Source: Myxococcota bacterium (GTDB lineage: Bacteria; Myxococcota_A; Polyangia; Polyangiales; Houyiibacteriaceae). From it: a DNA stretch of 64,000 nt. This document shows, piece after piece, positions 7,429 through 41,774 of this stretch (position 1 is its first letter; every line of letters starts with the position of its first letter). A program made the translations under genes and the position numbers. Below the pieces are notes generated by a model. It was given only the letters and a program-made list of their open reading frames with translations, searched no databases and had not been told where the DNA came from. Where the stretch lies: assembly GCA_039030515.1 (NCBI GenBank), contig JBCCEA010000014.1, positions 1 through 64,000 on the forward strand, in the 5' to 3' direction.

Positions 7429-9903
7429 GTGAGAATCGATAGGTGGGGTCGATTCGGGGGTGATCGAGGTCGATTTTTGGGGCTCGGTAGACTGCTTCAG
7501 TTGGTCTTGAGCTCGCTTGGACTCCTGAATATCTGCTGCACCGAAGCTGCGCCTGAGCTTGGAGATCCCGAGCTGCCCCCGTTTTTTGTGACGATTCAGC
7601 TCAGTACTGAAGAGGGTGTCCCCATCTCCGGGGTAGTCGAAAGTGCGCAGGAGCGCTGGGAGGTAGGCCCGGACGGCAGGCTTTCACTCTGGCTTACGGA
7701 TGCAACGCCGTTTCGGGCGAGTGCCGAGGGGTTTCTCAGCGAGCCTTTTGTGGTCGGTCGCAAGGACGACTCGCCCAATCCGGTCAAAGTCTTGTTGCTT
7801 CGGAGTCGCAATCGCATCGCGCTGCATTTCGGAGGCGACGTCATGTTTGGGCGCCGCTACGAGACATTGGACATGCCGCTCATTCGCTCTGGGTCTCGCG
7901 CTTCCGATGCGGCTTCCGTCGTGAGTGACCTTTCCTTGCTTTTTGAAACCGCAGATCTGAGCGTAGTGAATCTAGAAACGGTGGTGAGCCAACAGAGCCT
8001 TGATGAGGCGTATCCGCGAAAAAGATTCTTGCTGCAGATGCATCCTGAGTCGCTTGCTGGCATTTCGGCGCTCGGGGTAGATGCGGTCACGCTTGGCAAC
8101 AATCATGTTCGCGATTGGTTGGACCAAGGCGTTATCGATACGCTTTTGGCGCTCGAAGACGCCGGGATTCCTCAGGTAGGCGCCGGGATGAGTATGGAGC
8201 AGGCCGCCCAGGCTTTGCGGCTTTCTGCCGCGGGTCAGGAGGTTTCCCTACTTTCTTTCACCACAGTCGATGGTGACTTTGTCAACGACAACTACCCCCT
8301 CGATCCGACGAAGGATGTCGACGCAAGCGAGCGGTGGCAGGTGGAAGCGCGAAGGTGGGGGTGGAGTGGCACCTCGAATCAGATAGAGGTGCAGGAGCGG
8401 ATTGTCGGGGAAGTTTGGGCTTTGTTCGAAGATCTAGAGCGCACCCTAAGCGAGGATGAGATTCGGTCGCTGTGGGAGAGTCTCATTTTGGTTTATCCGG
8501 AGCTGCAAGATTGGGTTGCGCGTCGCGGTCATGGAGGTGCTGCCGGTTGGAATGGGGAGGCGGTGGAGCGAATCGCCTTGGAGTGTGCAAAGGGCGGCAT
8601 TGTGGTGGTGCAGCTGCATGCCGGTTTTCAGTTCCAGGATGCGCCATCCAGCGGGCTTCGCAGGATCGCGCAGCAGTCGATCGAAGCTGGGGCAGATCTC
8701 GTGGTCGCGCATCACCCTCATGTGCTGCAGGGCATGGAATGGTATCGCGACAAACTGATCGTCTACAGTTTGGGAAACTTCGTTTTCGATCAGAACTTTC
8801 TTCAGACTTTTCCCAGCGGCTTTCTTCGGGTGATCTTCGAATTGGATTCGGAGGACGCAAAGAAGCCGCTAGGTGAACGCCGTCGCGCTTCTCTCGTGCA
8901 GACCCGCTTTTACCCGCTTGAAATCGTGGGCTATCGTCCCGTTGCGGTGGTCGATGATGCCGCCTCCGAGATCGCACGTGGCATGCTCGCCAGCAGTGTG
9001 CTCTTTGCAGAGGCGTTCCGGGACGACGATTTGAGCGTCAAAGTGGCTCCTATCGATTCGCCTCCATCCACTGAGCCCGCTCGCTTTACAAGCGACAGGC
9101 AAAGCTTTCTGGTCTCTCAAGGCGTTTCGTTGTCTTCTGAGGCGGTCGCTGTCGCCGGGGAAACCAGCGTGTTTTTTGAGAAGCACGTCCAGGCGCTGAG
9201 TCTTGACTCCGTACAGGGCGCTTCGATGTTGGCCGGGCGCAATTTATTTCCCTACGGGGACTTTGAGGATCACTACGCCGAGGGAGACCTCAGATCTTTC
9301 GGCCATATCGCGCTCAGCGGGCCAGATGAGGTTGTCACCGCTGCAGATGCACCGTCCGGCTTGCGTTTTCTTAGAATGCGTCGGTCGGTGAGCAATGCGT
9401 CCAATCTGTTGGTGCGTCCCGTGAGTCGCGTGTCGCTGCCGAGGCATCGACTTTACGACGAACTGGGGGCTCCTCAGGACGGGGTGCCTTTGTATGAAGT
9501 CCGCTTGTGGACGCGTTGGAGTGGAAGGGGCCAGTCTGAGGCACGTCTCCGGCTCGACTACTATCGCTTTGACGATAGCGACCCGACCTCTGACCCCAGT
9601 TCGGTTCTGCTGGGTCAAACCAACGTTCCTCTGGTTTCCGAGTTTGATGGGGCGTGGCACCAGCTGCGGCTCGCTGTTCCGGAGCCACCGGTCGACCAGT
9701 GGGGGCGACCCGCCAACTCAGTTCTGCTCTACATCGAGCTGGAGCCTCCGGGAACCTGGGAGTCGATTCTTGATGTCGACCAACTCGAGTTCTGGGAATT
9801 CCGCCCGATCGTGCCCCGTCAGCAAAGGCCGTTCACGGCCCTTCACAACCCGTTTTCGGTAGATGCACAGGCTGTCGTCGGTGTTCTATCGCTCGATCGC
9901 TAA
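7429..9903 (+). CDS. capA: CapA/PgsA family metallophosphoesterase-fold protein with N- and C-terminal extensions
   Basis: GGDVMFGR, VVNLET, TLGNNHVRDW, LHAG, GADLVVAHHPHVLQGME, IVYSLGNFVF; hydrophobic N-terminus ending in Cys. Confidence 0.9.
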   Translation: MRIDRWGRFGGDRGRFLGLGRLLQLVLSSLGLLNICCTEAAPELGDPELPPFFVTIQLSTEEGVPISGVVESAQERWEVGPDGRLSLWLTDATPFRASAEGFLSEPFVVGRKDDSPNPVKVLLLRSRNRIALHFGGDVMFGRRYETLDMPLIRSGSRASDAASVVSDLSLLFETADLSVVNLETVVSQQSLDEAYPRKRFLLQMHPESLAGISALGVDAVTLGNNHVRDWLDQGVIDTLLALEDAGIPQVGAGMSMEQAAQALRLSAAGQEVSLLSFTTVDGDFVNDNYPLDPTKDVDASERWQVEARRWGWSGTSNQIEVQERIVGEVWALFEDLERTLSEDEIRSLWESLILVYPELQDWVARRGHGGAAGWNGEAVERIALECAKGGIVVVQLHAGFQFQDAPSSGLRRIAQQSIEAGADLVVAHHPHVLQGMEWYRDKLIVYSLGNFVFDQNFLQTFPSGFLRVIFELDSEDAKKPLGERRRASLVQTRFYPLEIVGYRPVAVVDDAASEIARGMLASSVLFAEAFRDDDLSVKVAPIDSPPSTEPARFTSDRQSFLVSQGVSLSSEAVAVAGETSVFFEKHVQALSLDSVQGASMLAGRNLFPYGDFEDHYAEGDLRSFGHIALSGPDEVVTAADAPSGLRFLRMRRSVSNASNLLVRPVSRVSLPRHRLYDELGAPQDGVPLYEVRLWTRWSGRGQSEARLRLDYYRFDDSDPTSDPSSVLLGQTNVPLVSEFDGAWHQLRLAVPEPPVDQWGRPANSVLLYIELEPPGTWESILDVDQLEFWEFRPIVPRQQRPFTALHNPFSVDAQAVVGVLSLDR

Positions 9904-9967
9904 ACGTTTCCGGTAGCTTACGGACTGCCTTGCTCAGCGCGCTCGTCGGCGTCCTGCTGATGTCAGA

Positions 9968-10080
9968 ACCGTACCTGGTACGGATTGTCCAGGAAGCGTC
10001 CAGGTGAGTTAGCGGCGGTTCACCGTACCTGGTACGGATTGTCTAGGAAACGTCCAGGTGGCTCTCCGTGCCTGGTCAGG
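9968..10080 (+). repeat. Two 39-bp direct repeats with palindromic core CCGTACC-T-GGTACGG, plus a degenerate copy
   Basis: Copies at 9968-10006 and 10022-10060 (54-bp period); CCGTGCCTGGTCAGG at 10066-10080. Confidence 0.85.
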
Positions 10081-10146
10081 GGATTTGGACTCTCGTATCC
10101 GAGGAATTCGAGCCGCAGGGTTCAGGGGGTGATCGGGTGACCGTTT

Positions 10147-11112
10147 TTGAAATCAGTGGATATCCCGCTGGTCCTCGTGGATGCGCGCATGGAGTCGATC
10201 GCCTCGTCGTTCTTGGGGAGCCTCGAACTGGCTGGATACCGATGTGTTGTCGAGGATTTACGGGTCGCGGTGAAGCAGTCGCTCTCACCTTACGCGCTGC
10301 TCCTTTCCTCCGCGGACGCCGACACCCTCGGGACCCTACGTCTGCTGCGACGTAAGCAGCCAGGCATCCTCGGTGTCCTTTGCGCGGGCACAGTCGAAGA
10401 GGCGACGGTGGCCACCGCTTCGGTCGATGCAGTCGTCGCTCAGAGCCGACTGGGTGATGAAATCGTTCGTGTTTTGGAAGAGTGCCACGATCTCCGCGGG
10501 AGACGTCACCGGGAGGCCCTCTCCGTCGCCAGAGCGCTGGTGCGGGGGCTGTCGATCCGTCAGGTCGAGACCCGAGAGCATCAGGAGCGGCTTGCGGCTT
10601 GGGGAAAGTTGCTCGCGAACGCCATCGGAGATGCCCAACTTGCCGAGCAAGTCGAGCTGGGCGCGATCGTCCACGACATCGGCATGATCGGCGTCCCAGA
10701 TGCGGTGCTGACGAAACAGGGAACACTCTCGGCAGAGGAGTGGGTGCTTGTGCGCAAGCATCCAGAATACGGCGCGAAGCAGCTCAAGGATCTGGATCTT
10801 TTGCGTTCTGCCGTCCCACTGGTGCTCTCTCATCACGAACGATGGGACGGTACGGGGTATCCCAAGGGGCTAAGAAGGAAAACTATTCCACTGGTGGCTC
10901 GGGTTTTTGCAGTGTGTGATGCGTTTGAGGCGATGACCGCCGACCGGCCTTATCGAAAGGCAGCAGCGGTTGCAGAGGCTCAAGAAAAGATCGCCAACGA
11001 ACGCGGTAAGGCGTTTGATCCAGAAGTCGTCGATGCCTTCATGACCTTGGATACTTCGGAGCTGCTTATCGCCGGGAGCCAGAGGGCTTCTCTGTGGCCG
11101 AGTCTCACTTAA
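10147..11112 (+). CDS. HD-GYP domain cyclic dinucleotide phosphodiesterase with degenerate receiver-like N-terminus
   Basis: HDIGMIGVPDAVLTK, HPEYG, HHERWDGTGYPKGL, ARVFAVCDAFEAMTADRPYR. Confidence 0.92.
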   Translation: MKSVDIPLVLVDARMESIASSFLGSLELAGYRCVVEDLRVAVKQSLSPYALLLSSADADTLGTLRLLRRKQPGILGVLCAGTVEEATVATASVDAVVAQSRLGDEIVRVLEECHDLRGRRHREALSVARALVRGLSIRQVETREHQERLAAWGKLLANAIGDAQLAEQVELGAIVHDIGMIGVPDAVLTKQGTLSAEEWVLVRKHPEYGAKQLKDLDLLRSAVPLVLSHHERWDGTGYPKGLRRKTIPLVARVFAVCDAFEAMTADRPYRKAAAVAEAQEKIANERGKAFDPEVVDAFMTLDTSELLIAGSQRASLWPSLT

Positions 11113-11266
11113 CCCCCTCAGACCCTGCTAACCCCTTCAGACCGAGTTCTGCTCGAGATGAATCGATGGCTTTGGTTCCGGAGTGGCGCTCAAGGTGGTT
11201 GACTGTTGCGCCGATGAACGCGCACGATTTGCGGGTCTCTAGCGATGCTTTCATGAGTCTGTAGCG

Positions 11267-13687
11267 ATGATGGGGAACGCCGAAGCCCTTGTGTTCGAGT
11301 TGCTACCCGAAAATGGCCTCGATCGAAGTGTGCTCTTGCCGGTTCTCGTGGGACTGGCCTACATCACCCTCTTCACTGAGACGCTCGGCTGGACGTTCGT
11401 CGCGCTGGTCGTCCCCGGCTACCTCGCCTCGGTCTTTATCGCAGCGCCTGCTTGCGGATTCACGATGGTCGCGGAGGCGCTCATCACCTATCTGCTTTCC
11501 CGAGCGATCGGGCTGTGGCTCCCCAAGACCCGGATCTGGACGGTCTCTTTCGGTAGGGAACGTTTCTTCCTTATCATTCTCATGAGCATCCTCGTGCGCC
11601 TGCTTAGCGAGGGATGGGTGCTCCCGAGGCTCGGCGCGTACTTCGACTTCGGTGGCGCGGCAGAGCTCTACAGCATCGGTCTCGTCGTAGTTCCTCTGAC
11701 CGCAAACGCGCTTTGGAATGTCGGTCTGACGACCGGAGTGCGCCGCACAGCCACGATCACCCTGCTTACCTGGGCCACGGTTCAATACCTTGTCGTCCCT
11801 TACACCAATCTCAACCTGACTTATTTCGAACTGACCTACGAGAGCGTCGCACTGGACTTTCTCACCGCGTCTAAGGCCTACCTGCTCCTGCTTTCCGGAG
11901 CCCTTCTCGCGGCGAGGGCCAACGTCCGGTTCGGCTGGGACTTCAACGGTATTCTCGTTCCGGGGCTTCTCGCGATCGCCTGGTACAGTCCCCTCAAGCT
12001 CGCTTCAACTTTTGTTGAAGCAGTGATCGTGATGGTGGTCGCGCGCGCCCTGGTCTCGGCGGGACCGTTGTCCCGCGTGCTGATGGAGGGACCCCGCCGC
12101 ACGTTTTACGCGTTCTCGGTAGGGTTTGCTTTGAAGTTCGCCGCAGGGCACCTGTCCCACCGCTGGTTGCCGGGTATGCAGGCGACCGACCTTTACGGGT
12201 TCGGCTACGTGCTGCCCTCCTTACTTGCGGTGAAGATGTGGCAATTGGGCAGCGTGCCGAGAGTGCTCGTGCCGACTCTCGCCATCTCATCTCTCGGATT
12301 TTTGGTCGGCAACGGTATTGGCTATGCGGTGGCGGTCGCGATGGACGAACAAGCGCTGGAACCTTCCGGGGCGATCACGCGCCGTTCCTCCGCCGCACGT
12401 GAGCTGATACGCGCCTCGTCTTGGCCGTCTCGACCACGGCTCGATCGAGAACTCACGGGTCTTCAAGAAGTTGCGTCCATAGTGTACGGTCTTCGTGAAC
12501 GCAGCGATGTTCGACCGACGCACGGCATCCAAATCGCTGAGGTTGCATCCCAGGCCGGGAACCTCTACCGGGTTCTTCACGGAGGGGAGGCTTTTTCCCA
12601 TCTTCCTGCTTTCGCCGTTTCGGCAAGCCCTGAGGCGGCCGGCATCGTCGGGGTGAAGAGCGAGCCTTGCGGGATGTTGTCTGCAGTGGCCATCGAGATT
12701 GCCGATGCCGTGCAGGCATCCATCGTCGTGGTTGCTCGTTCAGAAACGAGTCTCAACGCCTTTGTGCAGCTGCTCTCGATTCAGACGGGAGAAGAGGAGA
12801 CTTTGGAGCTGCACGGCTCAGAGCAGGTAGCGCAGCTCCTCACGCAGCACGGGGCTTTGGACCTACTGGAGTCCCGCGCGGTCTCGCTTTTTGCGATCGA
12901 GACGGCCGAGCTTCAGTCGAGCGCTCAAGCGCTGGATGGTCTTCGCAGTTCTGTTGAACGATTCGTGCCCAAAGCAGATGCACGAGACCTCCGATGTTTC
13001 AGCTCTATTGTTGCGCCTGCGATGAACGCAGTGGAGCCACCGAGCGCTTATGCTCGGGCGGTTGCCGCCCAACTCGGCTTCTCTTTCGAGGATGATCCGG
13101 GTGCAGGGCGCCGAGCTTTGGTCTCTCGCTTTCAAGGCGGCATGGTTTGGCTTCGTTCCGCGACGTTTGATTCGCCTTCCGCGGTCGTCGTGCCTTTTCC
13201 CATGGGGCATGCAGGGCTTCTCGCTGCGGGTCAGTGGGTGCATCGGGAGCTGGGCTTTCGAGATCTCGTCGCGGCCGGGGCGCTCATGCGTTACCAGCCC
13301 GACATCGGTATCGGTTCCTACCGGTCGCAGTCGTATCTCCAGCGCACGGTGGAGACCCTACTCGGAGATGGGGAAACCCAAGTCGTCGTGGTTCGAGTGC
13401 TGCCTACCCATCAAGAGCTCATCGATGTCGCGGGGGTCTTTTCGGACGGGGAAGTCTCCGAAGACCCCGCCGCTTCACACCCGGAGTTTGTTTCCTGGTT
13501 TCAGGACCATATCGGAGCGGTCGAATGGTTTGACGGCACGAGGCGCATGTTTCCTTTTCGCGGAGCGGGAGATCCGATGGTGGGCTTCGGTAGGCAGTTT
13601 GCCTCACGGCAGGTGCTGCTGACCTGGTGGTCTAGCCGGGCCCGCTCGATCGCGCTTCGCCAGGGGTTGGAGCCCGCACCGCCATGA
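11267..13687 (+). CDS. capC: Poly-gamma-glutamate biosynthesis protein PgsC/CapC, tandem-duplicated, with long C-terminal extension
   Basis: Copy 1: GWTFVALVVPGYLA...FGRERFF...LYSIGLVVVPLTAN. Copy 2: GWDFNGILVPGLLA...EGPRRTF...LYGFGYVLPSLLA. Confidence 0.85.
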   Translation: MMGNAEALVFELLPENGLDRSVLLPVLVGLAYITLFTETLGWTFVALVVPGYLASVFIAAPACGFTMVAEALITYLLSRAIGLWLPKTRIWTVSFGRERFFLIILMSILVRLLSEGWVLPRLGAYFDFGGAAELYSIGLVVVPLTANALWNVGLTTGVRRTATITLLTWATVQYLVVPYTNLNLTYFELTYESVALDFLTASKAYLLLLSGALLAARANVRFGWDFNGILVPGLLAIAWYSPLKLASTFVEAVIVMVVARALVSAGPLSRVLMEGPRRTFYAFSVGFALKFAAGHLSHRWLPGMQATDLYGFGYVLPSLLAVKMWQLGSVPRVLVPTLAISSLGFLVGNGIGYAVAVAMDEQALEPSGAITRRSSAARELIRASSWPSRPRLDRELTGLQEVASIVYGLRERSDVRPTHGIQIAEVASQAGNLYRVLHGGEAFSHLPAFAVSASPEAAGIVGVKSEPCGMLSAVAIEIADAVQASIVVVARSETSLNAFVQLLSIQTGEEETLELHGSEQVAQLLTQHGALDLLESRAVSLFAIETAELQSSAQALDGLRSSVERFVPKADARDLRCFSSIVAPAMNAVEPPSAYARAVAAQLGFSFEDDPGAGRRALVSRFQGGMVWLRSATFDSPSAVVVPFPMGHAGLLAAGQWVHRELGFRDLVAAGALMRYQPDIGIGSYRSQSYLQRTVETLLGDGETQVVVVRVLPTHQELIDVAGVFSDGEVSEDPAASHPEFVSWFQDHIGAVEWFDGTRRMFPFRGAGDPMVGFGRQFASRQVLLTWWSSRARSIALRQGLEPAPP

Positions 13688-16344
13688 TCGTTCGCTTGCT
13701 CACCGCTCTGCTCTTTGTGGCGCCGCTGCTCATCGCGGTCGTGCCCAGTCGCCTCTTTATCCCTGGCTTCTTAGAGCCTCGCTATCGGGCAAGGGAGCAT
13801 CTCTTTTACAGCTATCTCGGTGATCGACCGCTAGAGTTTTCCGTTCCGGGCGGAACCGAACGCGTGGAGCTTCAGTGCGTTGCCGCAGTCGACGTCGGCA
13901 CCTACAGCCCAAGTCAGCGCTACGCGTTTTCTTTGAAGGCGGAGTTTCGCAAGTCCGGCACAAGCCCGCCCCGTTCCTTTGAGCTCGACCTCAACAGTCG
14001 CGTCAGCGTGCTGGGCAAGCGCAGATCCCCACTCGCGGTCTACGGCGCCCGAATGTACCGGTTATCCGGTGAGATGACCGACCCCCGCTGGGTGACCTTA
14101 CGGGTCCCCCGCCGGTTTCGCGGGGGTGTGATGCGGATCGTTGCGATGGAGGGTGCGACCCGGCGGGTGTGGGTGCGTCCGTTTGGCGTGCAGACGGAAT
14201 CTACCGGGCTGCAGAGGTATCAGAAGCTTGACCTTGAGACTGAGGATCGTCGGCAACGCGTCAAAGAGTACGGAACCGGGCTCGGGATGGACGACCTGCC
14301 CGCATCTCTTCGTGACGCGCTCCTGCTTGCCGCGGCCTACCGTCTGGTACCCCTTGGACGCAAAGGCGACGATTTTGATGTCCGAAAGGTCGTCACCACC
14401 GACTATCGGCGTCCCATCTCGCAAACCGATCACGCTCCTTTGCCTTGTTCGCCGCAATTTCACCTGGCGTTCAATGTTCGTGGCCCCATTCGGCTTTTTT
14501 TTGAGGCTGAGCGCAGCTCGAGGGTGGTGGTTGCAGATGGGGTGGCCGAAGATTCTCGGGACATCGCACTCGATCTCGAAGCTCTGGAGTCCCAGGAGTT
14601 GCGGATGGATGCGCCGCCCGATGCGGCACGCACCCTGGTCGTGTCTTGCCCCGATAGGCTTACCCCGCTTCGTGTATCGACAAACGACGCCGGCTACGGG
14701 GCGTTGCTCGGAGAGACGCCGGTACTGAGATCAGAGCGCCGGCTCAAGAACCCATTTGAACTGCGGCCAGATATTCGCAGCTCTCGCTACATACGCCTTC
14801 ACCCCGCAGAGCCGGTAGCGTTTCACATGCCCGAAGATACAGAGGCGGTGGTGAGTTTGCGCGTCGAGATGCCCGACAATGCTTCTTCGACAACGCTGCG
14901 TGCCGCGTTTCGACTCGATGATGCGCCGTTTGAACTTATCGATCGGCCGGCGGTGCGCTCCTTTTTTGAGCGGATTGGGGGTTCTGGCTTGGTGAGTGAC
15001 CCCTCGAGCCGTCGTATCCAAGTGCGGGCGGGAGAGGTGCTCGAGGTGCTCGGCGCACGCACCGCGCTCTTGAAGGTGGCTTTGCGGGTGCCTGGGGTCA
15101 CCGAGTTGGTTCGCGCGCGGTATCGGGGGCAGGGTGGGCGTTTTCGCTATGCGCCTCGAGACCTCGATGCGTCGGCCTGGGCTCGTCCTCGCAACTTCGA
15201 TAAACTGTCGCGGGAGGGACGCATGGTGACCGTGGCGCAGCAGGTGAGACTGCGCGACCCCCGGCGAGCGCTACGCATGGCTCGCAGAACCGCATCTCGT
15301 GCTGCGGAGATCGCCGCGACCGCTACAAAGGTTCCCCGTGGACCGGGCGAACAGACCGCACCTAGCCGTGGCGCCGAAGAGGGCATCGCCAGACGGAGCA
15401 CGGCACAACAGCAGGGGCAGGTATCTGAGACAGGGGGCCAGGCAGGCGGCCAGCTTGAGGGTGCTTCGTTGGACGCCTCCACTGCTTTTCGACAGGCCTC
15501 AGGGGTCCAAGCGTGGGAGCGATGGCGGGATCGATTTCGTCCGGGTCCCCGCTACACGCGGGTGATTCGACCTTTGGGTTCGCCTTTGTCGCAGCGAATT
15601 TCCGTGTATCAGCGGAGCGCGCCTACGGAGGCTCGCCGGGGGATGCTTACCGAGGTCCACCGCGAACGTCGGGTTCACGTGCGGCAGCAGGATCCGGTTC
15701 ATCGGCTTTTGCTGCGGCCGGCGGAGGAGCGCCTCGGCTCACCGATCACAGTGTTCGTCGATCGAGAGCCGGTGAGCACATTTCGGGTCTACACCACCGC
15801 AGAGCAGATCGCGTTGGATCTTTCGCCCGGTGAACATGCACTTCATGTGCAAGGCGTGGGGTTCGAGTCGGGAGGACGCGCCTTTTCCACAGCCGCTCCA
15901 GTGGAGGGTGGGGTGTTTCGAATGCGTCGCTACCACTCGCTACAGGCCCCGCTTGTCTTCGAGGTGCCGGTAGAACGGTTTGAGCGTCAGGTGGCGTTCG
16001 CCCAATTGGTCTCCTCGGAACCGATCGAGGGATACAGTCTGGAGTTCACCATGCATCACGATGGCAGCGCTCTTGTCACAGCGCTCAGAGCGGGACGTAC
16101 CCGGCCAGAGTCCACCGTGAGGTTTTGGGATCGACCGATGTCTCACCGCGCTGGATTCGCGAGGGCGCGGGTCCCGTTTGCGCGCGCTCCTCGGTCTGGG
16201 GTGCGGCGGATCGAGGTTCGGCGGAACCGAGATGGCGGAGGCGCGCTTTGGTTGCGGATGGTACTGGTAACTGAACGTCCCGGGACGGATCCAGAGGCGG
16301 TGGTTTCGGTATCGCGCCGCACCGCGTTTGCTCCCGGTCTCTGA
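13684..16344 (+). CDS. Uncharacterised 886-aa membrane-anchored or exported protein of the cap/pgs locus
   Basis: Long ORF with an N-terminal hydrophobic helix; ATGA overlap with capC and TGATG overlap with the next gene. Confidence 0.8.
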   Translation: MIVRLLTALLFVAPLLIAVVPSRLFIPGFLEPRYRAREHLFYSYLGDRPLEFSVPGGTERVELQCVAAVDVGTYSPSQRYAFSLKAEFRKSGTSPPRSFELDLNSRVSVLGKRRSPLAVYGARMYRLSGEMTDPRWVTLRVPRRFRGGVMRIVAMEGATRRVWVRPFGVQTESTGLQRYQKLDLETEDRRQRVKEYGTGLGMDDLPASLRDALLLAAAYRLVPLGRKGDDFDVRKVVTTDYRRPISQTDHAPLPCSPQFHLAFNVRGPIRLFFEAERSSRVVVADGVAEDSRDIALDLEALESQELRMDAPPDAARTLVVSCPDRLTPLRVSTNDAGYGALLGETPVLRSERRLKNPFELRPDIRSSRYIRLHPAEPVAFHMPEDTEAVVSLRVEMPDNASSTTLRAAFRLDDAPFELIDRPAVRSFFERIGGSGLVSDPSSRRIQVRAGEVLEVLGARTALLKVALRVPGVTELVRARYRGQGGRFRYAPRDLDASAWARPRNFDKLSREGRMVTVAQQVRLRDPRRALRMARRTASRAAEIAATATKVPRGPGEQTAPSRGAEEGIARRSTAQQQGQVSETGGQAGGQLEGASLDASTAFRQASGVQAWERWRDRFRPGPRYTRVIRPLGSPLSQRISVYQRSAPTEARRGMLTEVHRERRVHVRQQDPVHRLLLRPAEERLGSPITVFVDREPVSTFRVYTTAEQIALDLSPGEHALHVQGVGFESGGRAFSTAAPVEGGVFRMRRYHSLQAPLVFEVPVERFERQVAFAQLVSSEPIEGYSLEFTMHHDGSALVTALRAGRTRPESTVRFWDRPMSHRAGFARARVPFARAPRSGVRRIEVRRNRDGGGALWLRMVLVTERPGTDPEAVVSVSRRTAFAPGL

Positions 16345-17423: not shown

Positions 17424-17654
17424 CGATTCTACGCCCTAGCGGAAGATCGTTTCCGATGCGGGCTAACCGATCGCCCTCGGTGGCGCTTCGGGGTCTCAGC
17501 ACTCCCGCTCAGCTCGATTTCTGCGTCTAGGAACGGTCGGTGGGTCGTTTGGTCCTGGAGGTTTGCAAAAATCGACCGTACCTATCTTGAGTCTGATTGA
17601 TTTCGGTAGCGTTGAACTCTTACTGTAACTTCGTTGGTATAGAGGCTCCGACCG

Positions 17655-22187: not shown

Positions 22188-22245
22188 AGTCCGACGCGTC
22201 ACCCCGCAGCAAGATACGGCACGCAATCTGCTAGGGATCGAGGAA

Positions 22246-23436: not shown

Positions 23437-23557
23437 TCAGTGGTTTGGACCCGGTCCTGCGATTCGAGGGTAGGCTTTGCGAGCCTATGCGTGGTGCGGC
23501 AGTTTGATAGTCTGCCGCCATGGGCCATCAACCTACGCACGACCACCCGGAGGTCTT

Positions 23558-23587
23558 TCGCCACCTGGCCTGTCGCCACCTGGCCTG
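23558..23587 (+). repeat. 15-bp tandem duplication (TCGCCACCTGGCCTG x2)
   Basis: Direct reading of the intergenic DNA. Confidence 0.8.
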
Positions 23588-23610
23588 TCTCCAACTGAAC
23601 TGAGGACCAG

Positions 23611-26600
23611 ATGGAAGATCCCCGATACAAAGTGCCCTGCGATCTATATGAGGGCGATCCCTATCAGGCTCATCCATGTCAGGGTGATCCACATCGGGCC
23701 CCGAGTGCGGAGGCGATTCAGGATGCGTGGCGCGAGTCTGCTCAGCGCCAAACCCCAGGCTCCGGAGGTCCAAAGGGAGGTGACCCCCTGTGGCTGCAGG
23801 AGTGGGAACTTGGTGCGCTGGTCGGCTCGAGCCTTGCCCCATCGGAAGAACGACGCCGTAAACTTACCCAATCTCTCCCTGGCTCGCCGGAGGCCCGATT
23901 TGACTCGCCCCAGACCGGAGGTTTGCCCTCTGTAGCCTTGCCTGAGGCAGCAGCAGCAGCCTCCTATGGGGTGTGCACCATTTGGCCGACGCCGCCTGCT
24001 TCGGTAGCTGCCCGTCGTGCCCTGCATCCAGGCGCGACCGAGCATCAAGACGCGACCGAGCGACCGCCAGAGGCTCGCCAGCGGGGTCTGTTTCTCAAAA
24101 GCCCCCTCAGCTCCCCTTACTACCGGAACCAGCCTTCGGCGCTCTTCCGTACGCTGACTCAAACGATCGTAGACGACTGTCTCCAAGAGCCACCAAAGCA
24201 ATTCAAAGAGCTTATTTCTAAATGGACAAGATCGAGCCCCGTCGGGGTCGTGCTGGTTCGTCACCCGAGCGTCTTCGAGGTTCTTCAAGGCGTAGGGCTT
24301 ATCGACTCGTCATCTCAAGCTAAGACGCAAGGCGCATGTTCTGAAGTCGCTGCCCTCTCCCGCGGGCTCTTTCTTTTTTTCTTACGCACAGACACGCTCT
24401 GCCCCATCGTGCGCTCCTGGGTGAGCGGTAGCCGAAACGAAACGGCTCGAGCGCCCATCGGCTCCGACCGTACCGATATTGGCGACCATGCACGAGTATG
24501 CGGTGCCTCTAGAGAAAGCGATGTTCTCCGAGCTGCGGTAGAGCGGATCGGTTTCACCCCGTCGGTGTACGCGCTCTTAGAGTACGCGCATTTGAGAAAG
24601 TCGAACCCGGCCGTTTCTTTCGAGTCCTATCCGGGCAACGCTCCAAGTGGATCCGCTTTGAGCTCGGCGGCTAGGTTTGTTTGCTTAGGCGGTGCAATAT
24701 CCAATCGATCAGAGCTGCATCGCTTACTCGCTTCCGATCCGATGCGGCAATTGCGGCGTCTCGCCAAGCGTATCGGTGGCGATCATCGGTCTTTGGCGCA
24801 TGCCGTGGTCGTGCTCCTGGACGGGCTTGCGTTTGAGTTAAACAGCGCCGCTGAGACGAGCCAGCGAGGGGCCTGTGATCTGAAGAATCGTGCAGCATCC
24901 TGCTTTGATCGTTCTCCCGTGGTTCGCGAAGCCTTGCGAGGTATCGAAATGCTGCTCGAGTTGATGTACCGACTGCGATCGCGCAGTAGCCGGATGATCG
25001 AAGCCTATCGGCTTTTCTATCAAGAGCTCTTTGTCCTCCTGCAGGTAGCGCCCCTGTACGATCAAAACGCGGTTGCGCAGAGTTTTATCGACGTCTACCA
25101 AGCTCGCGGAGTGCCGGCAGAGCTGTCGATACAGCCCTGCCTCGCTGGCTCCGGCATGGGGGCGGTATCCGTTGCGCTGGCCGGAGTTCGTCACGCTATC
25201 GACTCGAACCACACAAAGAGCGGCGAGGCGATGCCGGTTTTGGTCTCCGATCCAGCGCGTCGCGAGGAGAGCGGATTTGACGCCAGCTATTACGAGGTCT
25301 GCCAGCTCGTGGGAGGTCCGCACGATCCCGATCGGCGCTCGCGGATCCTGGTGGCCAATCTAAACTCGAGCGACCCGGGTCCACCTCAGGGGCTCGACCC
25401 GATCCTCAATGCGGTGAAAGTTGCCCTCCGAGACTGCGCGAACAAGCCCGTACACTTGATCTTGGACATCACCATCGAGGTCGATGCGTGGCGGCTGAAG
25501 AAGCTTTTTCACGAGCTGCACGAGCCGATGCGGCAACGCCGTCTGCAGGTGGTCTTGTGCAAGAGCCTGCAGAAATTCTCGGCACTCGGCTCCGGAAAAG
25601 CCATGATGGGCCTGGTACTGTCGGTTCAGCCGACTAGGCCTTACCCTCATCTCCCTCGGCCCGCTGACGAGTTCCAGGGATTTTCTGACTGGCTTAATCT
25701 TCAGACAGAACAGGCTCCGGAGACGGACCCCGAAGTTCAGTTCGTGACCCATCTGGCGCGTCACGGCGCTCTTCTGGAGCTTGTTCAGGTCCGTCAAGCC
25801 ATTCAAGGCGCTCGGATGATTCGCGGTGAGGAGCGCTCCTTGGACTCGGTGCCTGACCCCACCGAGCATCCACTGGCGGGCCGTCGCAATTATCGTGGAG
25901 GCTTAAGAGCCTCCCCAGCGCACGGCGAGTTTCCAAAGGTCGATCTTGGGGACCTGCTCGCTCAGCGTCTGGCACAGAAGCCGAGCTTTGCTGCTGCGTC
26001 CACCTCGTTTCTCGCTGTGGACGGCGATAAGGAAGCGGACGGTTACGTTCGGTACCGAATCTCGCCGGGTCAGGAGCCTCTAAGGCGGGTTCAAGAGTTG
26101 ATGCTGGCGATCAATGCAGTAGCGGAGCCCTCTGCTGGAGATTGGACGCGAGGCGACGTGCAGTCCCCGCGTCCATTCAAGATCTCGCCGCAACATGTGA
26201 TCCGTCTGCTTTCAACATGCGTATTGAATTGTGCGGAAGGCAACGTCGAAGAGATCGCTGCGGGACTCATAGCCTGCGGAGCACGGCTGCGTCTCATGCT
26301 GCAAGTCCCGAGTGCTCAGCGAGGACCAGGCTGGCGCTCAGAATACAGGAAGAGCAGCCGCATCATCATCAAATCAGCCTCGTTTATCTATCTGCTGGAC
26401 TGCATCTTTGTCGACAGTGCCGCGAAAAGCGGCATGTGCGCAGGTCCTGAGAGCATACCGCGGCTCTGTGAGGGGATGTTGGGTGAGCCTTTCAACCACC
26501 TGACTGAGGATATGCGAAGCGAGCTCGCCACCATTTGGCTCCGCCGATGTACCGAGCTGCATTCTTCTGTGATGTCTTCGTCATCGATCGAGCAGTTTGG

Positions 26601-26964
26601 TGCACTCATCCCGCGCGTGCGGATCTATGAGATTCTTAGCTCTCTCGGCGAGCAGCAGGAGTTCCAAAAGCTTCCGCGTGTGGTCCAAATCCGGCTTTGC
26701 CGTCTGCTTTTCGAGGGGCTGTCGCTGGGAACGGTAGCTCGAGTCGTTCAGTCCTTTCATGCGTACGCGGCGATTCATCAACTCAGCCAGACGCTGTTTT
26801 CACATGCGCTAGCGCAGTTGGGGCTCGGTCAGAGAAATCCCAGCTTTTTGAACCAACCGAGGCCGATAACGCTCGAGGCCATCCGCAGCGGGGCGAGCGG
26901 TCCCATCTTTCCAAGTCTTGCAGGGGTTTCCATACCTGTAGTTTCATCGGTAAGGCCCGCGTGA
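23611..26964 (+). CDS. 1117-aa protein with internal PLP-dependent (Cys/Met metabolism, fold type I) domain
   Basis: SGMGAV, YYE, LILDIT, KSLQKFSALGSGKAMMG and RISPGQE occur in the order of cystathionine gamma-synthase/lyase motifs. Confidence 0.65.
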   Translation: MEDPRYKVPCDLYEGDPYQAHPCQGDPHRAPSAEAIQDAWRESAQRQTPGSGGPKGGDPLWLQEWELGALVGSSLAPSEERRRKLTQSLPGSPEARFDSPQTGGLPSVALPEAAAAASYGVCTIWPTPPASVAARRALHPGATEHQDATERPPEARQRGLFLKSPLSSPYYRNQPSALFRTLTQTIVDDCLQEPPKQFKELISKWTRSSPVGVVLVRHPSVFEVLQGVGLIDSSSQAKTQGACSEVAALSRGLFLFFLRTDTLCPIVRSWVSGSRNETARAPIGSDRTDIGDHARVCGASRESDVLRAAVERIGFTPSVYALLEYAHLRKSNPAVSFESYPGNAPSGSALSSAARFVCLGGAISNRSELHRLLASDPMRQLRRLAKRIGGDHRSLAHAVVVLLDGLAFELNSAAETSQRGACDLKNRAASCFDRSPVVREALRGIEMLLELMYRLRSRSSRMIEAYRLFYQELFVLLQVAPLYDQNAVAQSFIDVYQARGVPAELSIQPCLAGSGMGAVSVALAGVRHAIDSNHTKSGEAMPVLVSDPARREESGFDASYYEVCQLVGGPHDPDRRSRILVANLNSSDPGPPQGLDPILNAVKVALRDCANKPVHLILDITIEVDAWRLKKLFHELHEPMRQRRLQVVLCKSLQKFSALGSGKAMMGLVLSVQPTRPYPHLPRPADEFQGFSDWLNLQTEQAPETDPEVQFVTHLARHGALLELVQVRQAIQGARMIRGEERSLDSVPDPTEHPLAGRRNYRGGLRASPAHGEFPKVDLGDLLAQRLAQKPSFAAASTSFLAVDGDKEADGYVRYRISPGQEPLRRVQELMLAINAVAEPSAGDWTRGDVQSPRPFKISPQHVIRLLSTCVLNCAEGNVEEIAAGLIACGARLRLMLQVPSAQRGPGWRSEYRKSSRIIIKSASFIYLLDCIFVDSAAKSGMCAGPESIPRLCEGMLGEPFNHLTEDMRSELATIWLRRCTELHSSVMSSSSIEQFGALIPRVRIYEILSSLGEQQEFQKLPRVVQIRLCRLLFEGLSLGTVARVVQSFHAYAAIHQLSQTLFSHALAQLGLGQRNPSFLNQPRPITLEAIRSGASGPIFPSLAGVSIPVVSSVRPA

Positions 26965-29900
26965 GTACAGAGGCTCCGGAGCCGCCGTGCTGGCGCGACT
27001 TCTTCATCGAAGCGCTTTGCCCGTTGAAAAAGCGCGTCTTGCTGGATTTCGTGACTGACTTCGCAGAACCACTTGAAGGGTCCAGCCCGTCGATTGTGCA
27101 GCATGCGTGCATCGACGCCATAGTGGATCTGCATCAACGGTGCGCCTCTGCTCGAAGTGAGCTCGACCAGCTGATAGGCCAGGTGCTCGGCGCGTCAAAT
27201 GAGTTGGAGCGGCAGCAGTTGCTGCGTACCCACCTGAGAAGGGCGGCAAAGCGCAGAGCCGATCGTCATAAGGCGCATGAGGCCCGCTCCCGAATCGCGC
27301 GTGCCGAATCGACCCGCCGAGGCAGCGTTTGGCGGGTGCCGGTTTGGCCCAAACGGTGGCGCGTGCCGCTGAGGCGTCTTTTGAGGCGATCGGCTCCGGA
27401 GCCGACGCTGAAGTCGTCGATGCTGCGCAGCTTCGATTTGGATGCGGTGCTTGATTTTGAAGCGGGCGTTCTTGCAAGGGAGGAGCTGAAGATTCGCGCC
27501 CTTCTCGATGTCGTGCGGCGGCTTGCGGTCGACTCGATATCGCATTTTGGAGCGGGGACGCTGGAGTTCCTCTTCGTTCTCAGCTCAGGTCGATCGTCCT
27601 TGAACGTCCGACTCGACGCGCTTGAGACCTGGCTCTGTCTTCTTCGTTCGGGTGGCGCTATGGACGAACTCGCGCCGGTCCTGCCTTGGCTTCGCGAGCG
27701 AATGGCCTCCGAGGTCGAGTCGCCTCTGCTCCGCATCAAGGTGGTCGAGCTGCTTGCGATCCTGGAGCCGAATCAGGCCGCACGTGAGATTCGGCGCAGC
27801 CTTGCGTCAGGTTCAGGCTCTCCCAAGGAGTTTCTCTACCGCAGGGGACTGATACGGATTGCGTCGGGTCTCTCTGGCGAGATCACTGTTTCCGAACTGC
27901 CGCTGCTTTCGGATGCAAGTGGCCATGTGCGTCAAGGTTTTGCTTCGTCTCTTGCCGAAGAGCGATCTCCTGCGGCGCTCGAACTGCTTGCGACGCTCGC
28001 GCTCGATGATGCGGCGGAGCGGGTTCGGGCGTTCGCTATGCGGGCCTTGTTTCAGGCCGCCGAACACGACTCGCTCGCCGCCAGTGTTTGGCGCGAGACG
28101 TTGCGCTCTATGTTGACCGAGGAGCAGAGCGAACTGGTGATTCGGGTTGCACTTCAGACAACGGAGGCGTGGGCTCGTTCGCATGCTGCAGTCGATTTGG
28201 CCGAGGACCTAGTGCGGTTCATCGGCGAAACCGAATATGCACACCTCGGCTGGAGCGCTGCGTCGATCTTGTGTCGGTGGGCCTGTAACTCCGAGCCGGC
28301 CACAGCCGATCTGCTCGAGCGTTTGGAAGACACACTCCAAGGGCGTGCGGAGGGGGCGTGGACGAAGCTCAAGCTGAGCCTGGAGGAGGCGGAGCGCGTC
28401 GATCAGGTGCTTCCTTTGCTCGCGGCAGAGGATTTTCCGGTCTCCTACTACCGGCGACGGCAAACTTTTGGATTTGTTCGCGGAGAACGCCGGGGTCGAC
28501 GGCTGTGGCGCTTGCTCTATGAGCTCAGGAATCCAAGGCCGGACAAACGCCAGGACGTGTCGCACGTGACCGCTCGGGTCGGGCCGGCGGATGCGGTGGC
28601 CGTACCTCGACTGCTCGCCGAAGTGACCCAGACCAAGGTTCCCGGAGAGCGTCGCGTGGTGTCGCGATTGGGTGATTGGGCTCCGCTCACGCCCAGGGTC
28701 GACGACTTCTTGCTTGCACTCGATGGGAAACGGCCGAGGAGGATTCTCACCCCTGCCGGAGCGATCACGATCATCCCGCCCCGCGGTTTTCGAAATCTTT
28801 ATGCCTGGGCGGCACTCTCCACGGGGTATCGTCGCTTTGCAGCCCTTCGAGAGGAGTTTCTCGATAGCGGTGAGGATCCCGCCAAGTACTTCGGTCCCCT
28901 CGAGCGTTTGGGGTTTGTCATCGAATATGCTCCGGCGACCTGGCACATTTCGGGCACGCCTTACGCAATCGAGCTGCGAGAGGCGGATCGAACCTTCAGT
29001 ACGCGGGCGACCTGGTCCTTGCCGGCCGTCGTCGACAGTCCCTTGGGGTATCTGCTGGACGATAAGGGAAGCCTTCCCTCGCACCTGCTCGTCGTCGTTC
29101 TCTCCACGACGTTGCTATTGCTCCTTCGCGGGGTCTTGCAGCAACGCTCGATCGAGCGATTGATCGGCCGTATTCCCGTGGTGATCGGGGGCTGGGGGAC
29201 CCGGGGCAAGTCGGGCACAGAGAGGCTCAAAGCCGCGCTGTTTCAGGGTCTCGGATACGACGTGTGGGTCAAGACGACGGGGTGTGAAGCGATGGTGATC
29301 CACGGCATTCCCGGCAGACCTGCGGAAGAGGTCTTTCTCTATCGGCCCTACGACAAACCCACGATTTGGGAGCAGCTCCGCGTAGTCGACTTGGCGGTTC
29401 GCGGGGGAGCACAGGTTTTTCTTTGGGAATGCATGGCCCTGAGGCCTCGATTTGTCGAAGTACTCGCGCACCGCTGGATGAACGCCTCAGTGTCGACGTT
29501 GACCAACGCCTATCCCGACCATGAAGATGTGATGGGGCCGAGTGGGGAGGATGTGGCCCGAGTGATCGCATCGTTCATGTCCAAAGGAGGCGTGTGCTTT
29601 ACTGCGGAAGAACAGATGCTTCCCATCCTAAAAGAGCAGGCTCGTCTCGCCGGTACGGATTTGCGCGTGATCACGCCCACCGAGTCCGACTTGATTGCGG
29701 GCGATCTGCTCGACATGTTTCCCTACCAGGAGCATCCGAGAAATATCGCGCTGACCGTTCGGATGGCCGAGCATTTCGGGATCGATCGAGAGCGCGCCGT
29801 CTTGGCGATGGCCGAGCACGTGGTCCCCGATCTCGGCGTGCTGAAGACCTATCCTGCGATACAGCATCGCTACCGAGAGGCGTTCTTCACAAATGGCATG

Positions 29901-31205
29901 AGCGCCAACGAGCGTGCAGGCTGCTTGAGTAACTGGAAGAGGCTCGGGCTTTTTGAGCCGCAACCGCCCGATCAGTGGGTGGTCACCGTGGTGAACAACC
30001 GTTCTGATCGCATTCCCAGGTCGCGTGTTTTTGCAAAGATCCTGGTTCAAGACCTGAACGCGCGTGCGCATCTTTGTATCGGTACGGGGCTCAAAGGGCT
30101 TCGAACGTTTCTCGCAGAAGAGCTGGATGTCTTTCTCAGCACCCAGAACATTGCAGCGCTGCCCAATCGAGATGCTGCTGCTCCACAAGAAGAAATGCTC
30201 GAACGTTTCGATCGGCTCTTCGATCGTTTGGGATACCGGGTAAGCACGGTGGCGCTTCGAGAAGAGGTCTTGCGCATCGCGCTTGCCATGGGTGCGCGCA
30301 GGTCGGACCTTGAGGAGGCCTTTGCCGGTGTGGATCTCATCGAAGCGCATGCAGAGCACGTCGCGGAGATCGCGCGCTCTTGCGTCCCTGACGTGGAGCC
30401 TCAGGACTCGGAGGAGCAGCCCGCAACCTGGCAGGAGGCATCACGCTTTATTCGTCACGCGGTGCATACCCATCGCCGGCTCACCGCACTTCGCACGGCG
30501 CTGCTTTCGGACGAAGACCCTGCCGAACTCGATCGACGCATTCGTTCCCTGTATCGCGAGCTTTTTCTCGGGTCGGTGGTGTTTCTGGAAGACGTCTATG
30601 CGACCGGCGATCAAGTGATCGACCGAGCGGTAGGTATCGCGCCGCCGGGCAGTCGAATCCATCTTGTGGGCCTACAGAATATCAAGGGCACGGGACTAGA
30701 TTTTGTCTATCGATGGCTGTCGATCGAAAAGGTTTTACGATCTACGGACTCTCTTTCGACCCCCAAGTTTCAGGCGGACGATGAAGCGCAAACGATCCGC
30801 TTTCTCGGGACCTACGGTGGATACGGGCTTTTTGACTGTCGGGTTGCGCTTCGTGCTCTTCGCAGCCGAATTCGGCCCGATACGTCTTCGGAGACGAAGC
30901 TCTTGCTTGAGCGATCGATCGGGCGCCTTGAGGAGCTGGAGCAGAACCTTGCGGCGCGACTGTCCACCCAGCATGCGCGTTCGATCGTGGAACGAATCAT
31001 GGCTGTAGCGGAGCAGTGGCTGGATCCTTTGGACAGCATTGCTCGCGCGGTTCGAGCGCGTCGAGTGCAAGAAGCGTTTGTGTACGGAACGCTGAGTCAG
31101 ACAGGCGCTGCGGCCCGGATGCGCGAGATCACCTCTCGGGACAAGGGAGGGTGGCTCTACAAAGCGATCAAGTCGATATCAGCGCGCAAGGAAACTGGAG
31201 GGTGA
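26961..31205 (+). CDS. capB: Poly-gamma-glutamate synthase PgsB/CapB (Mur ligase fold) with ~700-aa N-terminal HEAT-repeat-containing extension
   Basis: IGGWGTRGKSGTERL, KTTG, TIWEQ, WECMAL, TNAYPDHEDVMGP, EHPRNIAL, VVPDLG, NGMSANE, VVNNRSDR. In-frame GTG at 26961 overlaps the upstream TGA. Confidence 0.9.
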   Translation: MSTEAPEPPCWRDFFIEALCPLKKRVLLDFVTDFAEPLEGSSPSIVQHACIDAIVDLHQRCASARSELDQLIGQVLGASNELERQQLLRTHLRRAAKRRADRHKAHEARSRIARAESTRRGSVWRVPVWPKRWRVPLRRLLRRSAPEPTLKSSMLRSFDLDAVLDFEAGVLAREELKIRALLDVVRRLAVDSISHFGAGTLEFLFVLSSGRSSLNVRLDALETWLCLLRSGGAMDELAPVLPWLRERMASEVESPLLRIKVVELLAILEPNQAAREIRRSLASGSGSPKEFLYRRGLIRIASGLSGEITVSELPLLSDASGHVRQGFASSLAEERSPAALELLATLALDDAAERVRAFAMRALFQAAEHDSLAASVWRETLRSMLTEEQSELVIRVALQTTEAWARSHAAVDLAEDLVRFIGETEYAHLGWSAASILCRWACNSEPATADLLERLEDTLQGRAEGAWTKLKLSLEEAERVDQVLPLLAAEDFPVSYYRRRQTFGFVRGERRGRRLWRLLYELRNPRPDKRQDVSHVTARVGPADAVAVPRLLAEVTQTKVPGERRVVSRLGDWAPLTPRVDDFLLALDGKRPRRILTPAGAITIIPPRGFRNLYAWAALSTGYRRFAALREEFLDSGEDPAKYFGPLERLGFVIEYAPATWHISGTPYAIELREADRTFSTRATWSLPAVVDSPLGYLLDDKGSLPSHLLVVVLSTTLLLLLRGVLQQRSIERLIGRIPVVIGGWGTRGKSGTERLKAALFQGLGYDVWVKTTGCEAMVIHGIPGRPAEEVFLYRPYDKPTIWEQLRVVDLAVRGGAQVFLWECMALRPRFVEVLAHRWMNASVSTLTNAYPDHEDVMGPSGEDVARVIASFMSKGGVCFTAEEQMLPILKEQARLAGTDLRVITPTESDLIAGDLLDMFPYQEHPRNIALTVRMAEHFGIDRERAVLAMAEHVVPDLGVLKTYPAIQHRYREAFFTNGMSANERAGCLSNWKRLGLFEPQPPDQWVVTVVNNRSDRIPRSRVFAKILVQDLNARAHLCIGTGLKGLRTFLAEELDVFLSTQNIAALPNRDAAAPQEEMLERFDRLFDRLGYRVSTVALREEVLRIALAMGARRSDLEEAFAGVDLIEAHAEHVAEIARSCVPDVEPQDSEEQPATWQEASRFIRHAVHTHRRLTALRTALLSDEDPAELDRRIRSLYRELFLGSVVFLEDVYATGDQVIDRAVGIAPPGSRIHLVGLQNIKGTGLDFVYRWLSIEKVLRSTDSLSTPKFQADDEAQTIRFLGTYGGYGLFDCRVALRALRSRIRPDTSSETKLLLERSIGRLEELEQNLAARLSTQHARSIVERIMAVAEQWLDPLDSIARAVRARRVQEAFVYGTLSQTGAAARMREITSRDKGGWLYKAIKSISARKETGG

Positions 31206-34374: not shown

Positions 34375-34445
34375 GGCGCCGATGGTATGTCCGCTCGCGA
34401 CAATGGAAAGAGAATAATCGATGCCTGCAGGAAATTTGCATTCTG

Positions 34446-41703: not shown

Positions 41704-41774
41704 GGCCTTGCCCCTGCCCGGGGTGTGCAGTCTCTCGCGCATAGTTGTGCAACCACCTGTCGATAGGGTGTAAG

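Follow-up and report, generated by a model that had tools for sequence, protein, structure and literature searches.

Five co-inherited genes of Myxococcota predicted to direct trans-envelope export of a poly-gamma-glutamate-type polymer

The window analysed here, 64,000 nt of contig JBCCEA010000014.1 from a Myxococcota bacterium of the order Polyangiales, carries nine co-oriented open reading frames (ORFs) on the plus strand between positions 7429 and 31205. In an earlier note on this DNA they had been read as one trans-envelope machine for poly-gamma-glutamate (gamma-PGA) controlled by cyclic di-GMP (c-di-GMP). The machine as such gained support from gene co-occurrence, from a protein combining tetratricopeptide repeats (TPR) with a barrel and from a PghP-like hydrolase, while its nine-gene extent and the c-di-GMP control did not. 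Five genes make up the system, those for a tandem CapC fusion, an 886-aa protein, a lipoprotein, a 1510-aa protein and a giant CapB. Together they probably specify five components for synthase-dependent export of gamma-PGA, or of a very close gamma-glutamyl polyanion, across the cell envelope. This reading is based on the co-inheritance of the five genes, intact ligase motifs, a doubled CapC, a PghP-like active site, a dead copy of the same domain, and the barrel. CapB, CapC and a PghP-like hydrolase are three independent families linked to PGA, joined by CapA as a further one, and finding them together was counted in favour of gamma-PGA export.

The surroundings of long capB genes, up to 40 kb, were compared in 30 loci from 29 genomes, which had been picked for long contigs from 53 long-CapB genomes, plus G016. 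The order capC-886-lipoprotein-1510-capB is unbroken in 22 of the 30 loci, and in all 22 intact loci of the relatives the barrel gene (1510-aa protein) directly abuts capB. Of the other eight loci, one has the five genes complete in a rearranged order, three are truncated at a contig end, three contain capB alone, and one is unclear. In the capB-alone genomes tested, which are of the Sorangium and Chondromyces type, the other four genes are located elsewhere as full-length open frames, with capC still adjoining the 886-aa gene. In 80 shorter loci, the order 886-lipoprotein-1510-capB was detected again in many named Myxococcota records and also in records labelled as other phyla, these labels being taken as given. 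A neighbourhood analysis of this kind had been proposed in the earlier note as a check, and the 886-, 359- and 1510-aa families do co-occur with long CapB and CapC. Its assignment of all nine genes to one system had to be abandoned: the HD-GYP, WD40 and pyridoxal phosphate (PLP) genes are not conserved with the core, and CapA is accessory and usually unlinked.

Long CapB is present in 53 of 401 genomes of the order. The 886-aa family was found in at least 51 of the 401, all within the 53 long-CapB genomes, and the barrel region in at least 50, of which 49 are long-CapB genomes. Even inside one family the distribution is patchy, with long CapB in 41 of 227 genomes, the 886-aa protein in at least 41 and the barrel in at least 40. 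The figures for the 886-aa protein, the barrel and the long CapA are lower bounds from stricter first-look profile searches. The 886-aa and barrel profiles were derived from capB neighbours, so matches in the training genomes are circular. In 26 CapB genomes not retrieved individually, a few of which had entered through the 80 shorter loci, the 886-aa profile matched 24 and the barrel profile 22. The informative half of the co-occurrence is the near-absence from the 348 CapB-negative genomes, in which the 886-aa family was found in none and the barrel in one. A plasmid search revealed short CapBs only and no long CapB. The GC content of the core is 0.621 compared to 0.575 for the genome, a value equally high in 10 of 338 windows of the genome. 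None of the 72 same-family genomes of the 401-genome scan showed the system, although G016 carries it, and horizontal acquisition of the core is plausible. In some genomes the complete system occurs twice, or there is an additional lipoprotein homologue standing by itself (G332, C80, C65 and C5; G092, L139:13028-14074; G364:C1:6392337-6393188).

The motifs expected of a Mur-type ligase of the CapB/PgsB family (P-loop G.RGKS, KTTG, ECMA, DH.DVMGP, NR.DR) are all present in the giant CapB. It retains GTRGKS, KTTG, EQ, ECMA, N..DH.DVMGP, NG..AN and NR.DR, the motif columns are invariant across 36 long homologues, and the ligase region is 30% identical to a characterised CapB over 333 aa. NCBI already labels these proteins CapB. 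The predicted activity is ATP-dependent polymerisation of glutamate through gamma-glutamyl bonds. The ligase (nt ~29094-30119) is preceded by a helical/HEAT region and a membrane segment and followed by a helical insertion, a C-terminal motif and a helical C-tail. The N-terminal region comprises ~650 residues, with HEAT/alphaRep matches at profile positions ~200-440 and no signal peptide; in a few loci (L027, L075, L077) the N-terminal half of CapB is a separate gene. Ahead of the ligase there is a strong hydrophobic segment, with a weaker one immediately before it (family means 2.17 and 1.10), which makes a hairpin plausible that would leave both the N-terminal region and the ligase in the cytoplasm. 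For neither the CapB ligase nor CapC was a solved relative found by sequence. Against TIGR04012, CapB scored 208 bits (E 2e-61), below the equivalog cut-off of 222.7, and the long CapBs of five of five relatives scanned gave 185-200 bits. The last ~50 positions of this model are displaced by the insertion in long CapB. In a quick tree of 70 rows, from which near-duplicate Sorangium and Polyangium rows were excluded, the long CapBs group in a clade of their own, separated by a long branch from the short ones.

The host genome contains a second, canonical locus (G000:C2:79983-82891; L091:9984-12892) with a capB of 426 aa, a capC of 160 aa and a TIGR04332 gene of 377 aa. Here, CapB clears the TIGR04012 cut-off with 428.7 bits. 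This compact pgsB-pgsC-TIGR04332 cassette resembles the long system in that a diderm carries homologues of CapB and CapC, and is unlike it in the short CapB, the single CapC and TIGR04332 as third gene. The short capB is preceded by an overlapping ORF for a lipoprotein-like protein of 408 aa without a family, which was considered as a barrel and rejected. For the hydrolase, 886-aa and 1510-aa genes, no homologue was detected elsewhere in the host genome. If both loci made plain PGA, the second would be redundant. This redundancy, together with the deep separate clade of the long CapBs, their scores below the cut-off and their invariant extra regions, could indicate that the same machine handles another or a mixed polyamide (a Glu/Asp or Glu/X copolymer, for instance), owing to a shifted specificity of CapB. 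We consider this unlikely: the full set of CapB motifs, NR.DR included, aligns with the characterised glutamate ligase, the nearest known family of the partner hydrolase is specific for gamma-PGA, and a basic barrel lumen (see below) suits a polyanion.

The earlier description of the 359-aa product as a hydrolase-like lipoprotein was borne out. Its profile had only two matches in the PDB, both B. subtilis YndL (E 0.53), a demonstrated gamma-PGA hydrolase (PMC4497714). The hydrolase family PF05908 was matched weakly by six of 47 homologues of the lipoprotein (best E 7e-4), whereas the protein of the window itself had no PF05908 match and the Pfam gathering cut-off was not reached in the genome search. 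When aligned by hhalign with 17 PF05908 sequences including PghP of phiNIT1, the family matched over 142 columns (prob 75.6, E 2.4e-5); after 20 column shuffles, the maximal prob was 0.31. In this alignment H160, D164, H243 and E326 are in exact register with H40, E45, H103 and E165 of PghP, of which we take the first three to be zinc ligands and E165 to be catalytic, the residue identities being read from the sequence. H160, H243 and E326 are kept in 47 of 47 aligned homologues, and D164 is Asp in 46 of them. The lipoprotein is thus probably a zinc peptidase acting as gamma-glutamyl endo-hydrolase, with a periplasmic location suggested by a lipobox or signal peptide. It shares with PghP/YndL a profile alignment over the whole domain and differs in ~13% identity, Asp instead of Glu at the second ligand and membrane anchoring. 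It also differs in being encoded inside a synthesis operon, in its co-inheritance and in having a dead copy fused to CapC. A phage search with the lipoprotein gave no matches. A prediction of its complex with the TPR/beta-sandwich region of the barrel protein scored 0.00, which was taken as no verdict and used for neither side. A short tandem repeat of the TEPSS type is located in the linker of the lipoprotein (16500-16554), where other sequencing runs omit 18 and 54 bases. Of 251 genomes of the phylum, 11 encode canonical PF05908 hydrolases (L161-L170), six of them belonging to a same-family genus where no long CapB was found.

In the CapC fusion, the membrane repeats at aa ~27-166 and ~211-332 are each covered by PF14102 (two stretches, E 9e-44) and TIGR04011 (two stretches), and the two halves align to each other (E 8e-9). 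Both proteins on which the PGA rule of CapsuleFinder relies, CapB and CapC (PMC5542703), are present. Fused behind the repeats is a periplasmic region (aa ~355-806), whose residues ~550-800 constitute a PghP-like domain according to an hhalign match (prob 98.65, E 5e-16) with the family of the lipoprotein. The four metal and catalytic positions of the lipoprotein are not conserved there. By sequence, the domain is a catalytically dead copy, placed at the exit of the predicted membrane conduit. The periplasmic part had no direct match to the PghP alignment, and its link to PghP is transitive because only the lipoprotein family connects the two. A possible second degenerate copy was indicated with prob 18.8.

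The 886-aa protein begins with a hydrophobic anchor (aa 2-20). Its AlphaFold2 (AF2) model (pLDDT 77.6) is nearly all beta, with tandem jelly-roll domains resembling carbohydrate-binding modules (CBMs). The fold search revealed no specific match, with a best VIA Z of 10.4, many CBM-like ties and BcsB at 9.2. From the model, the protein is probably a periplasmic scaffold anchored in the inner membrane. The family comprises 1223 clusters at 50% identity, and among ten members looked up, named ones are from Myxococcota and Candidatus Poribacteria. The domain is fused to the lipoprotein family in five of the 150 matches listed; these fusions and the lipoprotein-like domain within CapC are Rosetta links supporting one system. 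No clear homology was detected between the 886-aa and 1510-aa proteins (hhalign prob <20). Proteins of 1650-2085 aa (P0183, P0187, P0243, P0246, P0247), one of them from Candidatus Poribacteria, contain several stretches matching the 886-aa profile and lack barrel and hydrolase domains. Alternatively, acceptor binding could be the task of the very large HEAT, jelly-roll and TPR modules, and CBM-like folds could bind a glycan, as expected if short gamma-glutamyl chains were put on an envelope protein, glycan or lipid which is then exported through the barrel, in place of the secretion of free polymer. Such an arrangement appears improbable, since CapC is retained in duplicate and neither a glycosyltransferase nor a recurring acceptor gene was found among the clustered neighbours of 72 loci. 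Furthermore, a 14-strand barrel would be narrow for a folded protein.

For residues 740-1510 of the 1510-aa protein, the part covered by the AF2 model (pLDDT 84.6), TPR-like helices, beta-sandwiches and a 14-strand barrel were predicted, in accordance with the earlier description as TPR/barrel-like; model and fold searches place the TPR part before an outer-membrane barrel. The barrel, with amphipathic strands, extends over aa ~1209-1473 and is followed by a conserved C-terminal tail. Its best VIA match was CymA (Z 18.3, rmsd 4.2, 253 aligned), followed by OmpG (16.8) and by FhaC, BcsC, PelB, CdiB and PgaA at 13.7-14.1, with values of 14.0 for the exporters BcsC and PelB and 13.7 for PgaA. Foldseek gave OmpG and PgaA as top matches. 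As far as a model can tell, the barrel fold is secure, and the likeness to exporters is derived from the order TPR-then-barrel, not from the rank of the Z scores. At lumen-facing positions, which were assigned in 50 sequences by a rough hydropathy rule with no control porin compared, R+K amounts to 0.194 and D+E to 0.110 (0.117 and 0.118 for the whole region). By this measure the predicted lumen is basic.

Since the best barrel matches, CymA and OmpG, are import porins, barrel and hydrolase could alternatively serve uptake and recycling of external PGA; their place beside the synthase would then have regulatory reasons only, and export would need no dedicated channel. A role of PghP-like genes in feeding on PGA from the environment has indeed been put forward (PMC4497714), and PGA is released from heterologous E. 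coli (PMC3815934). This explanation seems very improbable. Outside of long-CapB genomes, the barrel was found in one of 348 and the 886-aa family in none; scavenging PghP genes of non-Bacillales mostly lack pgsB alongside, as described in PMC4497714; TPR-then-barrel is the order of the exporters BcsC, PelB and PgaA; and CapC itself bears a putative periplasmic binding domain.

Export of gamma-PGA by the five components, the reading preferred here, could proceed as follows. The tandem CapC repeats, corresponding to a fused dimer, would form the inner-membrane conduit, as suggested by the role assigned to CapC. The chain would be passed on to the dead PghP-like domain of CapC, which may bind without cutting, and would then follow the jelly-roll scaffold that the 886-aa protein provides. 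According to the model, the 1510-aa protein may bridge the periplasm with its TPR/beta-sandwich arm, and the basic barrel would release the polyanion. In exopolysaccharide systems, PgaB, PelA, BcsZ and AlgL are periplasmic trimming or clearing enzymes. By analogy, the active PghP-like lipoprotein may trim chains or clear polymer stranded in the periplasm. Where present, the long CapA probably converts some L-Glu to D-Glu. The gamma-glutamyltransferase CapD, which the earlier note could not recognise, is absent from the locus, and the sole copy of such a gene in the genome is on a different contig; no search was made for CapE. An anchored capsule should show CapD without a releasing hydrolase; here, no gamma-glutamyltransferase is in the locus and a PghP-like hydrolase belongs to the core. 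The absence of CapD makes released slime or a loose coat the more likely product, and the arrangement points to a secreted polymer rather than a capsule anchored to the wall.

Several observations weigh against export of gamma-PGA by this route. All six long CapBs scanned (185-208 bits) miss the equivalog cut-off of 222.7; from these scores and the long-branch clade, the substrate of CapB could have drifted. The match of the lipoprotein to PghP is remote (prob 75.6, Pfam cut-off missed), and the PghP fold is also found in other zinc peptidases. The fold match of the 886-aa protein is non-specific, and the short capB-capC-TIGR04332 locus is unexplained if both loci make the same polymer. With regard to co-occurrence, profile construction started from capB neighbours, the counts are minimum values, and related genomes do not count as independent cases. 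Finally, E. coli with pgsBCA yields PGA in the supernatant without a dedicated barrel (PMC3815934, PMC5542703), and a channel is thus not strictly needed.

Comparison with known systems revealed a combination of features. The CapB ligase motifs, CapC (PF14102/TIGR04011) and a CapA-family protein (PF09587) are shared with CapBCA(DE)/PgsBCA(E) of Bacillus. In contrast to Bacillus, CapB is three times longer (HEAT region, insertion, tail), the doubled CapC bears a fused periplasmic pseudo-hydrolase, CapA is an optional lipoprotein with extra domains, there is no CapD in the locus, and three extra conserved envelope components are encoded in a different gene order. A putatively processive inner-membrane synthase, a probable periplasmic scaffold, a dedicated hydrolase of apparently periplasmic location and, as modelled, TPR followed by a barrel in one chain (BcsC 6TZK, PelB 9H80, PgaA 4Y25) are reminiscent of Pga, Pel, Bcs and Alg. 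Unlike in these systems, the synthase is an ATP-dependent amide ligase instead of a GT2 glycosyltransferase, the hydrolase a predicted zinc peptidase, and neither a receptor nor an enzyme for c-di-GMP was detected as a conserved element. The barrels of BcsC, PelB and PgaA have 16 strands, whereas the barrel modelled here has 14 and is closest to CymA and OmpG. The system would work like Pel, Pga and Bcs without being a member, as a glycosyltransferase is missing, and represents a CapBC system to which a new envelope module has been added.

To our knowledge, the layout of synthase, hydrolase and outer-membrane channel is so far known for sugar polymers only. We tentatively suggest that the locus specifies the first synthase-dependent polyamide exporter spanning two membranes, convergent on Pel/Pga/Bcs and assembled from peptide-acting parts, and that its product is an unrecognised slime component which may differ in its chemistry from Bacillus PGA. 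The parts proposed are an amide ligase, a doubled CapC with a dead peptidase as guide, a peptidase for chain length, a 14-strand anion barrel and an optional epimerase. Fusobacterium reportedly makes PGA, according to papers citing Candela 2009. Surveys have recorded PGA genes in diderms (PMC5542703, PMC4497714). Even for Bacillus, section 8.2.4 of a 2026 review (PMC13721041) describes export of gamma-PGA as incompletely understood, and what the review says on protein capsules deals with Bacillus only. Like the earlier note, which knew of no experimental description, a literature search with most subscription journals outside its range found no account of long CapB, of myxobacterial PGA or of an outer-membrane PGA channel. 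For the outer-membrane crossing of gamma-PGA in diderms, no answer is described in the searchable papers, and the locus names a candidate part for each step. Homologues occur in the cultured, well-studied myxobacteria Sorangium, Polyangium and Chondromyces, which makes the export question directly testable. If the proposal is true, synthase-dependent secretion would be extended from polysaccharides to polyamides, an unsuspected polymer would be added to myxobacterial slime, and three large unannotated families, the 886-aa one alone with >1200 clusters, would receive roles. The export channel and the fused CapC dimer could then be applied to engineer PGA production in Gram-negative hosts.

All nine ORFs were found again at the places and with the lengths reported before (Table 1), and family scans agreed with the previous labels for capA, HD-GYP, double capC, WD40 and capB, the last one below its curated cut-off. 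Both overlaps of stop and start codons are present, ATGA for capC and the 886-aa gene (13684-13687) and TGATG for the 886-aa and lipoprotein genes (16342-16346). The capB frame spans 26697-31205 and specifies 1414 aa if started at the in-frame GTG at 26961, which overlaps the stop of the PLP gene; in the database copy (P0001), the start is placed at 27051, giving 1384 aa. In the family scans, the 886-, 359-, 1510- and 1117-aa proteins gave no Pfam or NCBIfam match, and no glycosyltransferase was detected among the nine ORFs. Signals in a promoter and terminator scan were at or below chance. The host genome has 4.08 Mb and is 85% complete. Its assignment to the Polyangiales agrees with the names attached to homologues (Sorangium, Polyangium, Chondromyces, Polyangiaceae) and with a TraB-like gene in the window.

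Table 1. Co-oriented genes of the window and their assignment to the system
Gene product	Position	Strand	Length	Status	Basis
Long CapA	7429-9903	+	824 aa	accessory	PF09587 E 9e-58
HD-GYP phosphodiesterase-like	10147-11112	+	321 aa	passenger	PF13487 (E 7e-35), NF053512
Tandem-CapC fusion	11267-13687	+	806 aa	core	PF14102, TIGR04011
Jelly-roll protein	13684-16344	+	886 aa	core	AF2 model, fold search
PghP/YndL-like lipoprotein	16344-17423	+	359 aa	core	lipobox LTGC (Cys37), hhalign
TPR/barrel protein, secreted	17655-22187	+	1510 aa	core	AF2 model
WD40 propeller	22246-23436	+	396 aa	passenger	seven repeats
Cys/Met-metabolism PLP-like protein	23611-26964	+	1117 aa	passenger	ESM Atlas neighbours
Giant CapB/PgsB	26961-31205	+		core	TIGR04012 E 2e-61

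The long CapA is a lipoprotein with a C-terminal extension, and the CapA-type metallophosphoesterase domain characteristic of MslH/CapA is present with its motifs kept. It matched the MslH model NF038314 with E 1e-18, far under the cut-off of 700 bits, and PDB 8GQ9 with E 2e-14. An epimerase role has been suggested for CapA (PMC8179263), and the long CapA is a candidate L-to-D epimerase. Its C-terminal family was detected in at least 34 of the 401 genomes, 33 of them with long CapB (33 of 53), and is mostly unlinked. When ten CapA-negative genomes were re-tested, nine were still negative and one gave a weak match; long CapA is therefore accessory.

The HD-GYP, WD40 and PLP genes are local insertions or passengers. 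In 119 other loci scanned, no homologue of the HD-GYP and PLP genes was found, and the WD40 gene had only two unrelated placements. In the host, the HD-GYP gene has two paralogues, the WD40 family 28 tblastn segments, and the PLP gene one paralogue on contig C11 (E 2e-12). The WD40 and PLP genes sit between the barrel gene and capB, which are adjacent in intact relatives, and they were rejected as components, not being conserved with the core. The label of the PLP-domain protein agrees with its ESM Atlas neighbours, which are Cys/Met-metabolism PLP clusters (0.95), no Pfam match being available. Since the stop of the PLP gene overlaps the possible capB start, co-transcription with capB may occur here, which speaks against its passenger status. 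Contigs from four sequencing runs cover the whole stretch and revealed no credible form without the WD40/PLP insert; in one other run, 402 bases, an in-frame size, are skipped within the WD40 repeats. Control by c-di-GMP through the HD-GYP gene was rejected, this gene not being conserved with the system. Family scans of the core proteins gave no match to PilZ or GGDEF, although an unrecognised binding site may be present.

A GGDEF gene (33448-34467, minus strand) follows capB at a distance of 2 kb, in the opposite orientation, and is not among the top neighbour clusters of the 72 loci. In 15 relatives' loci, a membrane protein of ~820 aa is encoded divergently from capC (e.g. L126:3475-5931, minus strand). 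By eye it resembles a degenerate sensor kinase, with a periplasmic sensor, a transmembrane segment and GAF/PAS and HATPase-like parts. It had no Pfam or NCBIfam match, is not present in the host genome, and is a candidate regulator of the system. In L084, an ORF for a sensor-like protein of 879 aa and a receiver-like ORF lie between capB and capC. Further along the window, downstream of topoisomerase IV genes, a TraB-like OmpA/barrel gene is located beside a cysteine-rich MXAN_6577/Stig1-like gene (41745-44731), a pair which resembles that for outer-membrane exchange in myxobacteria.

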